From: a virus
Taxonomy: Duplodnaviria > Caudoviricetes
Virus record (IMG/VR): IMGVR_UViG_3300025018_000079
Location: 1-34,791 of that record
Direction: 5' to 3' (one strand)
DNA: 34,791 nt
Part shown: piece after piece, positions 4,655-26,202 of the stretch
How positions within the stretch are numbered: position 1 is the first letter of the stretch
How the letters are laid out: every line of letters starts with the position of its first letter
Notes under the pieces: model-generated
Told to the model about the DNA's origin: nothing
Database searches by the model: none
The model's input: only the letters and a program-made list of their open reading frames with translations
Translations under genes and position numbers: made by a program

Positions 4655-5923
4655 TTACTCAACTTCGGCTTCAACCGGTCCGTCTGGCATATCCTCATCC
4701 GGATAGTCTGATTTCTTTTCCATCAGCTCCTTGATGATTTTATTGCCCAGGCTCGCCGGCAAATCCTCTAGCTTTTCAAAGCTCTGCTCGTGGAAGAATG
4801 AAACGTAGTCCAAAATTCCGCGATCTTCGGTAAGGCTCTCTTTGTCCTTAGCCAGGGAGCGAAGCAAGGTGAGCTTGTTGGCGCTGATAGTTTCTTCCGG
4901 TTCAACTGGCGCTTTAATCTCTTCCTTGGCTGGCGCTGTGGCCGCTGGCTGAGTGATTGGCTCCGTCTTAGTCTCTTTCTGTGGCTCGGGTGCTTCCGGT
5001 TCGTCCTGCGGCTTTTTAGGGCCTTGGTCGGCTATTTCTTTCTGAATTACTTTCAAGCGGTCTAGGATTTCCTTAAAGTTCTTCTCTACTAGGTCCAGCT
5101 GGGTTTGGCTTTTAACAGCTCCAACCAACTGGTCTTTAGTCCACTTGTTCACCTCGGCTCCGTAAATCTTTATCAGAGTGACCATGATCTCGTGCTTGAT
5201 TCCGTCAAAATCCGGGACACCACTTTCGCTCCATTCCTTTATTTTCTTTCCAGTATCTTCAGTGATGACGAACGGATCTTTATCGATAAACAATCGGGTT
5301 CTGTCTTTAGTGGCCGTAGCGTAGTGACCGTCGCGATCAAGGTTGAAGCTCAGGGTTACCTCGTACTCAAATCCCTCTCTCGTGATTTCTTTCATTCCGA
5401 CTTTTTTAACTTTGCGATCTTCAGTCTGGATGGTATCTGTCTTGCTTCGGCCGCAAGTGATGACGTGGCATTTTGAAGTGACTATCGCATCAAGAAATTT
5501 TTGATGGCGAGGACCGGTCTTGCTCCAGGCGGCCCAAGTATTTCCTTTGAATTGCGTGGCCGCTATCTTGTCGTTGATTTCTAGGCATCCGCCTTTTCCC
5601 TCCCATTCGTGACTGATTGAATCAATGATGATCACTTCGATTCCAGCATCTTCAATTGCCTTTATCGCTTCGATGTATCTCTCCGGGGTGTAGCCCTCGG
5701 TTCCGGCTTCCATGGTTAGGACATTGAATTCTCCCAGGTGGCTGTATAGATCAGCGCTTCCGTTTTCGGTATCGATTATCGCGATCTTGTTCCAGTCGCC
5801 TGCGATTCCTTTAGCGGCCAATAAGGCGCTATAGGTTTTGCCTGATCCGCTCGGGCCGAATATGCCCATGCGAATTTTGGCTTGTTTTCTCTCCGCTTTG
5901 CGGAGTACTAGATTTGTTTGCAT
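4655..5923 (-). CDS. AAA_24 / Sak4-like P-loop ATPase (recombination/annealing)
   Basis: Walker A GPSGSGKT, IDTENGS, IIIDSISHEW, GFEYE, KDRT. Confidence 0.85.
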   Translation of the reverse strand: MQTNLVLRKAERKQAKIRMGIFGPSGSGKTYSALLAAKGIAGDWNKIAIIDTENGSADLYSHLGEFNVLTMEAGTEGYTPERYIEAIKAIEDAGIEVIIIDSISHEWEGKGGCLEINDKIAATQFKGNTWAAWSKTGPRHQKFLDAIVTSKCHVITCGRSKTDTIQTEDRKVKKVGMKEITREGFEYEVTLSFNLDRDGHYATATKDRTRLFIDKDPFVITEDTGKKIKEWSESGVPDFDGIKHEIMVTLIKIYGAEVNKWTKDQLVGAVKSQTQLDLVEKNFKEILDRLKVIQKEIADQGPKKPQDEPEAPEPQKETKTEPITQPAATAPAKEEIKAPVEPEETISANKLTLLRSLAKDKESLTEDRGILDYVSFFHEQSFEKLEDLPASLGNKIIKELMEKKSDYPDEDMPDGPVEAEVE

Positions 5924-6127
5924 AGTGGTTTAAAATTTGTTACAATAAACATTGCTTAGTTTATTAATCTGTTCCGCAGCAATGCGGCGCAGATTTTTTT
6001 TATTAGATCCCGGGGCGCCGGGCCGTCGACCTTTTCAAGCGCAGACCGGCAAGTGCTTACCGGCTAACGTCTGAAAAAATTGAAATAGATTTTTAAAGTT
6101 CAAAAGTTATCAACAGGCTTAGACATA

Positions 6128-6161
6128 CAAAAAACCCCTTACTGTTTCCAGTAAGGGGTTT
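6128..6161 (-). terminator. Intrinsic terminator ahead of the early operon
   Basis: 13-bp perfect stem 6132-6144 / 6149-6161, GAAA loop and T run on the minus strand. Confidence 0.8.
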
Positions 6162-6204
6162 AGATATTATCTAATTTTATTCAATTATATTAAGGTTTTT
6201 GGCC

Positions 6205-6249
6205 CTATGTCCCGTGGCATTTCTTATACTTCTTTCCACAGCCACGTGG
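6205..6249 (-). other. Putative attP core region: SEC-C (SecA C-terminal) remnant
   Basis: Start-less segment translating as PRGCGKKYKKCHGT*, close to CPCGSGKKYKKCHG, about 290 bp downstream of the integrase. Confidence 0.7.
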
Positions 6250-6281
6250 CTTAATTGAATACCCTTACTGGTTATGTCTAA

Positions 6282-6310
6282 ATTATAGCAAGTGCTTACA
6301 AATTAGTCAA
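6282..6310 (-). promoter_or_regulatory. Consensus sigma70 promoter
   Basis: TTGACT-17 bp-TATAAT with extended TGn; GTAAGCA motif in the spacer. Confidence 0.8.
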
Positions 6311-6491
6311 CACTTTCTTTTTTCAAACTGCTATTTTTATCTTTAGGCCTCTTCACTCTCAACCAAATCTTATATGCGGTTTGCCTATTGATTTTAAATA
6401 TATTGCCAATCTCAGCCCAAGACATTTCAGGGTTGTTTTCTTTAATCCGGATTAGCTCCGTGTTTCTTTTTTTATTAGCTGGGTAACTCAT
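6303..6491 (-). CDS. Small HTH DNA-binding protein (repressor/Cro or excisionase-like), 62 aa
   Basis: MSWAEIGNIFKINRQTAYKIW; ATG 6491 lies 8 nt after a -10 box. Confidence 0.75.
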   Translation of the reverse strand: MSYPANKKRNTELIRIKENNPEMSWAEIGNIFKINRQTAYKIWLRVKRPKDKNSSLKKESVD

Positions 6492-6499
6492 ATGCTTAC

Positions 6500-6528
6500 A
6501 GTATAGCAAACTGCTTACAATAGCACAA
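6500..6528 (-). promoter_or_regulatory. Promoter of the HTH gene (near-leaderless)
   Basis: TTGTGC-17 bp-TATACT with extended TGn; GTAAGCA motifs in the spacer and at the start site. Confidence 0.6.
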
Positions 6529-6534
6529 GGCCTC

Positions 6535-7479
6535 TCAATTCCCTTTAAAAGAGCGGTATCTAGACTCGAGCTCAACGTTGGTCATCATGGTATAAATTGA
6601 CGAGCTCTGCACCGATGCGTGGCCGAGAATGTTCATGACGTCTGCCGTAGATCCTCCCTGGTGAATAATGTCGTGGCCCATATGATGCCGGAAGCTGTGC
6701 GCGTTCATGTATGGTATCCCTGCCCGGTTAGAATAGCGGCGGAGCAATTCCCCTACCCCTTTGATGCTTAAACGCTGACCGGCCAGGCTGGAAGTAACGC
6801 ATAAAAAAAGCGCCGCCGAATCTTTAAAGACCATTTTTCGGCCGAGCGCTTCTCGTTTAGCTAACCATATTTTTACTGCCTGGTTCGTTTCTTCTGTCCA
6901 AAAAATTTCCCGGAACGGCCGGCTACCCCGATTCTTCTCTGTCCGGATTAGAGCTTTTTTATTTTCAAGATCGATGTCTTTTACATCAAGCGCCATCAGC
7001 TCGCCGTTACGCGCCCCGGTATCCCAAAGCATTGATACAATCGCGCGGTTTCTGATGTGGCGTGGATCTTTACTGTCGGCCGGGATTGAAGCGATTAGCT
7101 TCTTAAAATTTTCCTCATCGGCCACTCGAGGGATCTTATACTGCTTCCTCGGTATTGGAATCAGCTCCTCGTTTAAAGTAGTGATGCCGCGCAGGCGCAT
7201 AAATTCAAAGAATTTACGAAGCGCCATGCAGCGAGGCAGGAGACTATTCGGGTCCCAGCCCAGCTCTATTATTCCGTTTAAGTAGTCCATGATATCGTTG
7301 ATCGTTATCCGGATGACATCCGGATTCCGGAGGAAAAGGCAAAAATTGCGCAGCTCCCTATCATAGCCCTTTACGGTATTCCCCTTAACTTTAAATTGGC
7401 GCCAATTGGAGAATTCATTGATCGCCTCTTTCATACTTACCGGCACAATAATTCGGCCGGGTTCTTGCGGTTTTAACAT
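6535..7479 (-). CDS. int: Tyrosine integrase
   Basis: SAM-like N-terminus; catalytic R (TGARNGE), K, HSFRH, LGH, Y. Confidence 0.92.
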   Translation of the reverse strand: MLKPQEPGRIIVPVSMKEAINEFSNWRQFKVKGNTVKGYDRELRNFCLFLRNPDVIRITINDIMDYLNGIIELGWDPNSLLPRCMALRKFFEFMRLRGITTLNEELIPIPRKQYKIPRVADEENFKKLIASIPADSKDPRHIRNRAIVSMLWDTGARNGELMALDVKDIDLENKKALIRTEKNRGSRPFREIFWTEETNQAVKIWLAKREALGRKMVFKDSAALFLCVTSSLAGQRLSIKGVGELLRRYSNRAGIPYMNAHSFRHHMGHDIIHQGGSTADVMNILGHASVQSSSIYTMMTNVELESRYRSFKGN

Positions 7480-7724
7480 AGCCCCACGGACGAGAGTCAG
7501 AAAGCATGGAAAAATAACTCTCGCTATATTATAATTAAATTAACCCGGTCGGGAGTTCGCGCTCTCGGCTCGGGCCAGAGAGCGGCCCCACGGTCGCTCT
7601 CGCTTTGTTCTAGCTTAATTGCTAAACGCTATATCTAACCACTAAAATAACAGGCGGTCAAGTGCTTACTTGATTTTTTGCCAGATGTATGGTAGAAAGT
7701 GAGTATATTAAACTAAGTAAAAAT

Positions 7725-7988
7725 ATGTCTGAATCAAAATTCAATATTGGCCTACTTGGAATGATGGGCAAGCTATCTCTTGAGAATGGCTTTTTAAAGT
7801 TCTCTAATCCATACGCAAAACGCTTTAATGTCAGGGTTTCTGATATTGAAACCGTCACAGTTGATGCCTTAAATTTTGGCAAGGCAAAACTCAAAATAAT
7901 TGGCAAGGGGTCTGTTTTAGCTGAGACTGATCTGCCAGTAACTTGGGCGGAGAAATGCCAACAATGGATATTAGGTAATTTAAAATAA
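7725..7988 (+). CDS. Small PH-like domain protein (moron)
   Basis: Beta-rich 87 aa from ATG 7725, with VSDIETV pattern and a C-terminal helix; opposite strand and AT-rich. Confidence 0.6.
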   Translation: MSESKFNIGLLGMMGKLSLENGFLKFSNPYAKRFNVRVSDIETVTVDALNFGKAKLKIIGKGSVLAETDLPVTWAEKCQQWILGNLK

Positions 7989-7994
7989 AAGCAT

Positions 7995-8624
7995 ATGCTT
8001 ACAAAAAAATTAATTGTCGCTATTGGCGCTATTTTAATTTTAGTGCCAGCCGTTGGTTTTGCTGCCGTCAAGTACGATCAAAAACTTATTACACGCCTAA
8101 AGGGTCAAATTTTACTTCAGGCTGATAGCAAGGGAGAGGCCTGGTATGTTAACCCTAAAGATGGAAAGCGCTACTACATGAAAGACGGAGAGACAGCTTT
8201 TGCGATGTTGCGCAAATTTGGCCTAGGAATTAAAACTTCTGATTTAGAAAAAATACCTGTAGGAGATATCGAGGTTGCCGGTGGGGCTAGCAGTGAAACA
8301 AAAACACAAAGTAAAACTACAAATTTTGTTAAGACTCACAGCTATTCTGGAACAGAAAATATCAACACTGAGCCTTTTGCTGTAAAAAATGGTGCGTGGA
8401 TAAAATTTAAATATACTTTTACCCCTTACGATTCCAGCGACAATTTTATTGTTAGATTCACTGATCCAATTTCAAATGGCTTTGGAGATTTATTGGTCAA
8501 CACTATAGCTGAATCAACCATCCAGGGTGAAAATAATGTCTATAATAAAACCAGTGGCGGCTTGTATTATTTTGACGTAAGTGGATCCGGGAATTGGACT
8601 ATAGATGTATACGAACTGGAATAA
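7995..8624 (+). CDS. Secreted/surface protein with a Parcubacteria-type LKGxILLQ..GEAWYVNP domain
   Basis: Signal peptide, RLKGQILLQADSKGEAWYVNPKDGKRYY...GLGI, beta-sandwich-like C-terminus. Confidence 0.8.
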   Translation: MLTKKLIVAIGAILILVPAVGFAAVKYDQKLITRLKGQILLQADSKGEAWYVNPKDGKRYYMKDGETAFAMLRKFGLGIKTSDLEKIPVGDIEVAGGASSETKTQSKTTNFVKTHSYSGTENINTEPFAVKNGAWIKFKYTFTPYDSSDNFIVRFTDPISNGFGDLLVNTIAESTIQGENNVYNKTSGGLYYFDVSGSGNWTIDVYELE

Positions 8625-25931: not shown

Positions 25932-25958
25932 ACATTTTTTTGTGCTTAGTTTATTAGC

Positions 25959-25982
25959 TGACCACTGAGACAGCAGTGGTCA
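25959..25982. promoter_or_regulatory. Hairpin in the recombinase leader
   Basis: TGACCACTG-6 nt-CAGTGGTCA perfect stem; possible -35 TTGACT at 26012-26017 on the minus strand. Confidence 0.5.
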
Positions 25983-26202
25983 AGACAACACAATGCTCCG
26001 AACACGAATTAAGTCAAGTTTTTTCAGGTTGATAAGGTACTTTTTTGCCTCTCAGGTTTCTTTCGTACGAGGCGCTAGCATTCCATCTCTTTCTATGTAA
26101 ATTTTCTAGCCGCAAATTTCGTTAATTTGGTCCGTTTCCGTTCAGTTAGTCCAGTCTGGGAGGAAAAGCGCAACACGGTGCCAAATTTTGCCAACAAAAA
26201 GC

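Follow-up and report, generated by a model that had tools for sequence, protein, structure and literature searches.

Attenuators such as those of trp, PyrR and the T-box act through mutually exclusive pairing of the 5′ arm of a terminator, and in the lambda sib system RNase III destabilises int mRNA in a process that needs N antitermination. The phage attP region described here resembles both. As in trp, PyrR and T-box attenuation, the terminator 5′ arm has an alternative partner, except that the input would be a DNA rearrangement rather than a ligand, a protein or a ribosome. As in sib, an RNA structure lies across att and its effect is set by the integration state; unlike sib, the leader would gate early genes through pairing with a terminator.

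In the T1/canT system of Tn916, an insulating terminator at one end of the integrated element is combined with a promoter and a cis-acting RNA antiterminator at the opposite end, which excision joins to it, and replication genes are gated (Wirachman and Grossman 2024, PMC11658703). According to the same study, canT is a processive element of 341–452 nt that is active on unrelated terminators and is suspected to target RNA polymerase (PMC11658703). Like Tn916, the phage carries a terminator at the end of the element facing host transcription, and its promoter and predicted antiterminator meet this terminator only in the circle; the geometry is observed and the activity is predicted. Unlike canT, the phage segment is only about 10 nt long and its predicted pairing is cognate with one terminator, with which it covaries. 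This specificity suggests that the phage leader would not act processively. Moreover, Tn916 is an ICE, whereas the element studied here is a tailed phage that uses one fixed site in a protein-coding gene.

In the integration-dependent immunity of mycobacteriophages BPs, Brujita and Charlie, the repressor gene itself contains attP, and a protease tag is lost on integration (Broussard and Hatfull 2013, PMC3694055). Our phage shares with BPs a compact int/regulator cassette and a regulatory state that is altered by site-specific recombination. Unlike BPs, its attP lies outside the helix-turn-helix (HTH) gene (stop codon at 6303, crossover at 6224–6234) and within an RNA leader, such that termination would be what changes. 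In addition, int, the HTH gene, the leader and the early genes all run in the same direction, in contrast to the divergent rep/cro arrangement of BPs. Our literature search, which covered subscription journals thinly, returned no paper describing an attP-split paired antiterminator or integration at the end of secA, and the available part of the main text of bioRxiv 10.1101/2024.03.08.584096 does not mention secA.

We propose, with a probability of roughly three in four, that the attP crossover parts an intrinsic terminator from a segment of RNA further upstream whose base pairing is predicted to disable it, and that integration acts as a lock in cis. This proposal offers a concrete model for how Patescibacteria phages stay silent after insertion into the end of a host gene that is essential. 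Phages would also join Tn916 in using excision-coupled antitermination, but more simply, since the antiterminator would pair directly with a single terminator.

The att site and its host target

The window, by which we mean the whole stretch of DNA analysed (34,791 nucleotides), is a complete circular 34.8-kb tailed-phage genome from groundwater with a terminal repeat of 94 bp. Its attP region is placed between the gene for a 314-aa tyrosine integrase (7479–6535, minus strand) and the early operon, which holds recombination and replication functions. The integrase consists of a SAM-like and a catalytic domain (Pfam PF00589, PF02899) with only about 33 residues N-terminal to the SAM-like domain; a search at E ≤ 1e-40 gave 526 homologues, and most of the taxon-named ones come from Patescibacteria. 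The first early gene encodes an AAA_24/Sak4-like protein (4655–5923, minus strand) and is followed by a replication O-like gene. A second tyrosine recombinase of 279 aa (PF00589; 25092–25931, minus strand) is located among the head genes, and the 270-nt non-coding gap upstream of it (25932–26202) folds at the level of shuffled sequences (z 0.21).

The first-pass annotation had placed a putative att core at 6249–6205 on the minus strand. This segment encodes PRGCGKKYKKCHGT-stop, a damaged gene end whose motif we take to be SEC-C, and it does span att, but the true core in common with attB is just 11 bp (6224–6234, minus strand). Junctions were sought by comparing four public sequencing runs with the att region. 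In a contig from a landfill run, phage sequence from 5811 to 6234 is followed by host codons for CPCGSG, which marks attL, and in a contig from a wastewater run phage sequence from 6127 to 6239 is followed by codons for GRNDLCPCGS. The metagenome locus L086, whose integrase is 99.7% identical, matches the window down to 6224 and then continues into host DNA with a laccase-like gene (attR); it corresponds to the other loose end of the landfill run and may come from the same sample. Since attL leaves the phage at 6234 and L086 leaves it after 6224, the common core is 6224–6234. The crossover is thereby placed inside the interval predicted earlier (6187–6252), and it falls between the leader segment 6262–6271 and the terminator at 6132–6161.

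This region of the window is the genuine attP of a temperate phage: host junctions occur on both sides of the core, the integrase gene is adjacent, and the end of the target gene is restored, as seen from an intact secA end at attL in 14 relatives. For the host SEC-C gene, the phage brings a substitute 3′ end that encodes KKYKKCHGT-stop (6205–6234, minus strand); in relatives this gene is secA. The target of this particular phage is a SEC-C gene end, likely, to judge from those relatives, that of secA in a Patescibacteria host. On the attL side, a second promoter-like site, GGGACA-18-TATAAT (10/12; 6213–6184, minus strand), precedes the terminator. RNA from this site would be without the antiterminator and would end after about 50 nt; its −35 box is lost in L001, the nearest relative. 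An Xer dif-like reading of 6255–6282 was dropped because by eye only one arm resembles the consensus and the crossover lies elsewhere.

Scans with integrase homologues gathered about 160 loci. A full integrase end was present in 156 of them, and 96 of these had a strict KKCHG-type remnant downstream (81 distinct); the remaining 60, which are short contigs or have variant secA ends, lacked the strict core motif and contributed only L040 and L079. Genes past the core were either host genes (secD/secF, NUDIX and others), indicating attR, or phage early genes, indicating attP. In seven genomes secA (PF07516 above cut-off) was found on the same contig, 30–73 kb from the integrase. An intact SEC-C end followed by a terminator and then by new genes, the expected form of attL, was present in 14 of the 15 secA stretches examined, and the five first genes or neighbours past secA that were checked (four left-end proteins and an endolysin) match phage families. 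A predicted terminator lies 19–51 nt after the stop codon in all 33 loci analysed; the 19 attP-type loci had been selected for having a terminator and the 14 attL sites were unselected. Because the SEC-C end of secA is a conserved integration target, prophage ends can be called in Patescibacteria genomes.

The closest cassette (81% integrase identity) was found in a Falkowbacteria genome. Six loci contributed no attL/attR pair: neither the left end of the phage nor secA was found in the Falkowbacteria genome of L048, secA was not found for L072, L035 and L058 and was cut off for L067, and the secA stretch of L055 was without a SEC-C end. At L033:5326–5445, L061 and L078, attR carries two tandem SEC-C end remnants, suggesting that the secA site has been used repeatedly by different elements. 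Genome bin G023 (L063, L191) holds an attP-form phage contig and, on a separate contig, a secA end with no obvious phage sequence after it. The genomes of L033, L035, L036 and L070 (0.7–1.0 Mb) are titled 'uncultured Gammaproteobacteria', a label that looks doubtful; in L036 and L070 secD follows attR, as in named Patescibacteria.

Leader anatomy and alternative folds

Promoter P2 (TTGACT-17-TATAAT, 11/12 with an extended −10; 6282–6310, minus strand) has a predicted start near 6275. In the circle it reads towards attP, whereas at attR it faces out of the phage towards host genes; P2-like promoters are seen in relatives. The 13-bp intrinsic terminator (6132–6161, minus strand) is separated from the restored stop codon by about 44 nt. 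Both elements had been proposed in the first-pass annotation, and their positions were confirmed.

Three exact inverted repeats connect the two sides of the core, all of them where they had been reported. The predicted antiterminator (6262–6271, minus strand) is the complement of 6148–6157, a stretch made up of 9 nt from the 5′ arm of the terminator and a single base of its loop. Guide helix C joins 6252–6261 with 6178–6187 (both minus strand), with a pairing probability of 0.93–0.96 when the RNA is folded from the P2 start. The outer repeat A (6273–6281, minus strand) is complementary to A′ (6119–6127, minus strand), downstream of the U tract. A transcript from P2 could not form this outer pair: 6273–6281 is mostly between the −10 box and the start, and pairing would thus be possible only in read-through RNA from upstream. 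This outer repeat is lost in L001. Three or more exact repeats of at least 9 nt between the flanks were found in 0 of 5000 dinucleotide shuffles and two or more in 9 of 5000, with windows that had been picked after the repeats were seen. No Rfam family matched the window at gathering score, the best hit in 5850–7750 having an E value of 0.29.

The RNA was folded as successive prefixes from a start at 6275. The antiterminator had a probability of 0.99 until base 6137 was exposed, and the terminator took over from 6135 and was better by 4.6 kcal/mol at full length. RNA release is expected near 6128, and 9–10 nt are kept in the polymerase hybrid; with these bases withheld, folding would favour the antiterminator when the decision is made, though only as a kinetic trap. 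The terminator was the equilibrium winner in 11 of 14 prophages excised in silico and in 15 of 19 attP loci, so that full-length attP preferred the antiterminator in no more than 3 of the 14 and 4 of the 19, respectively. Read-through must therefore be kinetic. When the last four stem bases were hidden, the 5′ arm paired upstream with a probability of at least 0.54 in 13 of the 14 excised prophages and at least 0.6 in 13 of the 19 attP loci. Full-length attL formed the terminator at 0.92 or above in 14 of 14 prophages.

We propose that in the circle P2 RNA would fold during its synthesis, forming an inner helix, then guide helix C, which would bring the antiterminator beside the terminator, and then the antiterminator itself. 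Segment 6271–6262 would occupy the terminator 5′ arm before the 3′ arm exits polymerase, and the recombination and replication operon would then be read. In the integrated state the promoter and leader face outward at attR and the terminator stands at attL behind the restored stop codon, where it would keep the host transcript out of the lytic genes. Speculatively, P2 at attR might also feed host genes cut off from secA. No promoter scoring at least 10/12 was found downstream of the terminator in 33 loci, within the available sequence of up to 260 nt.

The equilibrium preference for the terminator would also fit a leader that is simply a long rod for RNA stability, RNase processing or production of a small RNA, with a terminator that is only partly leaky or is bypassed by an antiterminator protein. 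Covariation of outer helices past the terminator in the L042–L070 group and weak or mismatched leaders in L001, L008, L044 and L152 point the same way. However, the outer helices could form only after read-through, the strongest covariation falls on the terminator 5′ arm (see below), and no antiterminator protein family was recognised among the 44 phage proteins, many of which are unannotated. We regard such a rod as unlikely and continue with antitermination by pairing.

Several leader features were observed in addition. In the larger prophages (49–73 kb where complete; L042, L044, L045, L047, L059, L070, L040 and L039), the leader is longer and includes outer helices, about 170 nt upstream of the core, whose partners lie past the terminator and which have changed in a compensatory manner; both promoters of these prophages contain TGACA repeats in tandem. 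An AGGTCG motif is present 3′ of the terminator in 18 of 33 loci (about 6035–6005 in the window, minus strand); in relatives it occurs 16–165 nt past the terminator, often with AAA before and a GC-rich stretch after it, and it is possibly a further leader element. DnaA-box-like 9-mers occur, as a raw count, within 260 nt past the terminator in 10 of 33 loci (6108–6116 in the window).

Covariation of leader and terminator

The pairing test was run between the terminator 5′ arm and the 120 nt that precede the core, in 18 attP-type loci and 14 prophages. These 32 loci were grouped by hand into 21 terminator families; L149 was left out and is reported separately. The layout recurs in relatives with unrelated sequences, and in 14 of 21 families no other of the 21 leaders paired better with the 5′ arm than the family's own, compared with 1 expected. 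The summed z of own pairs was −49.5, and the minimum among 100,000 permutations was −23.9 (p ≤ 1e-5). Individually, 19 of the 32 loci reached p ≤ 0.05 against shuffles and 13 failed to do so, as did all four host terminators that follow attR. When scoring was strand-neutral, the share of the 5′ arm covered by helices was 0.71 for own pairs versus 0.20 for foreign pairs; for the 3′ arm the values were 0.13 and 0.27, and the flanks were also without excess. At integrated copies, the phage leader at attR was a better partner for the attL terminator than host secA RNA in 14 of 14 prophages (p = 1.2e-4). The covariation that the first-pass annotation had suggested looking for is thus present, and its claim that the leader pairs with the terminator 5′ arm and that integration separates the two is supported by the geometry seen in relatives and by covarying pairing.

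Could the match be accidental, or the relic of a duplicated terminator 3′ arm? The matches are short (7–15 bp), and in the window the segment repeats 9 nt of the 3′ arm exactly. Both the shuffles and the family permutation test speak against this explanation, and in L063, L079, L049 and L021 the match extends into the loop and the 5′ flank but not into the U tract. Furthermore, where the two differ, leaders agreed more often with the 5′ side's complement than with the 3′ side itself (60 versus 37 positions, p = 0.025; 18 of 21 representatives, with 7 of 32 loci dropped for a stem match below 0.7). This preference shows that the leader did not arise as a copy of the 3′ arm. Chance or relic duplication is already largely refuted, and we consider it extremely improbable.

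The repeats might instead act as DNA, either as integrase arm or core sites or as a folded single-stranded att substrate of the kind known from integron attC and CTX attP. Helix C is centred on 6205–6234, and many relatives have several nested helices on either side of the core, some reaching past the terminator. Counts of G-U versus A-C did not separate RNA from DNA: a gapped alignment gave 219 versus 149, with a sense/antisense energy gap equal to that of foreign pairs, and the counts were 50 versus 45 without gaps and 5 versus 6 in stems. As one form of the count showed this bias and the other two did not, the case for pairing at the RNA level rests on targeting rather than on wobble. Several observations speak against sites for the integrase. 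The integrases of L045 and L047 are 99% identical, yet these loci carry different, internally matched leader/terminator pairs, so the paired sequence changes with the terminator and not with the integrase, and an integrase binding site is disfavoured. The arm-site alternative raised in the first-pass annotation lost ground accordingly. In addition, complementarity is focused on the terminator 5′ arm, the spacing of helix and crossover is variable (the antiterminator starts 22–62 nt upstream of the core), the gene end in L079 runs much further, and the integrase has little space for an arm-binding domain. A role of the repeats as DNA is therefore very unlikely, and we retain base pairing in RNA as the preferred explanation.

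Single loci showed compensation as well as its failure. Guide helix C has compensatory changes in L001 and in L033/L176, and L001 also has an uncompensated A-C mismatch in the antiterminator. L044, a complete prophage, combines an L045-type leader with an L047-type terminator. A tandem prophage was rejected as the source of this mismatch since a pattern search found no inner core in L044. This locus may have arisen by recombination, may be a prophage that is trapped, or may contradict the model. In L149, the leader of L004 stands before an unrelated terminator and phage genes (pairing p = 0.95), and our guess is that this is a tandem junction. L045, L047 and L044 provide natural matched and mismatched pairs as ready controls, and a recombination-gated terminator of 150 nt is a possible compact part for synthetic memory.

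A small HTH gene between two promoters

The first-pass annotation had seen no large CI-type repressor and had taken recombination itself to be the lysis-lysogeny switch. Neither statement is supported in that form by the segment between the integrase gene and P2, which encodes a small tri-helical HTH protein of 62 aa that is likely a repressor (6303–6491, minus strand). Its AlphaFold model has three helices and no strands (pLDDT 82), and a profile search gave a weak match to the mycobacteriophage immunity repressor 7r6r (E 0.009), which we treat as a lead only. Small ORFs occupy the same slot in most of the 41 loci listed; most of the 15 that were scanned gave weak HTH hits, few of them above the curated cut-off. 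Upstream lies a promoter-like sequence, P1 (TTGTGC-17-TATACT; 6500–6528, minus strand), which was read from the sequence, is below the 9/12 threshold, and is found at the same offset in L001, L048 and L096. The HTH start codon is 8 nt past the P1 −10 box, so that the mRNA would be nearly leaderless; this distance is 6–9 nt in the window and about ten relatives. Leaderless mRNAs are known for repressors.

The motif GTAAGCA, a putative binding site of the HTH protein, was found by motif search on the minus strand in the P2 spacer (6293–6299), the P1 spacer (6512–6518) and the P1 start region (6493–6499). Further minus-strand copies lie in the early leader (6054–6060, at the same position in L093) and upstream of int (7663–7669, with an equivalent at the same place in L093 and L033); 6 of the 9 copies in the window fall within 6054–8002. 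Across relatives, the spacers of P1 and P2 carry a common phage-specific motif (longest shared stretch 5.9 versus 3.5 nt, n = 17, p ≤ 1e-5, for promoters chosen by consensus and by eye). An HTH gene between two promoters that have a motif in common makes a protein layer of control very likely. On the simplest reading, the HTH protein would be an autoregulated repressor of P2; it would repress P2 and its own promoter as a trans-acting layer, set the decision and confer immunity. Given the conserved gene and the common motif, recombination is likelier a lock beside this repressor than the whole switch.

It is possible, though in our view doubtful, that recombination itself decides, with early expression set only by attP versus attL; the HTH protein would then not repress the lytic promoter but would serve in excision as a directionality factor, or act as an activator or in the manner of Cro. 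The six clustered GTAAGCA copies are non-palindromic, have one orientation and lie on both sides of the core, and sites of Xis, Cox and Apl are likewise non-palindromic and in one orientation. The HTH protein may be a directionality factor. No CI-type repressor is annotated among the 44 phage proteins, and BPs-type phages show that integration can determine the outcome (PMC3694055). On the other side, the motif sits within both promoter spacers and covaries between them, and a cis-acting RNA lock would be unable to give superinfection immunity. The Xis/Cox fold is winged, unlike the wingless three-helix model of the HTH protein. Only tentatively, then, might the recombination-gated attenuator be the main switch of a widespread family of secA-integrating Patescibacteria phages, with the HTH protein secondary or a directionality factor. 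If it were, terminator and antiterminator would have re-evolved in about twenty sequence versions, joined only in attP, and integrase activity would set early expression, a scenario to which we give limited credence. A cis lock alongside an HTH repressor remains our preferred model.

The sole two plus-strand genes of the window (7689–8624; 99 and 209 aa) gave no family hits. They are preceded by a rightward promoter-like site (7619–7648) that adjoins the GTAAGCA copy at 7663–7669. The 209-aa gene is swapped for an unrelated gene in L001, and the two genes look like lysogen-expressed cargo.
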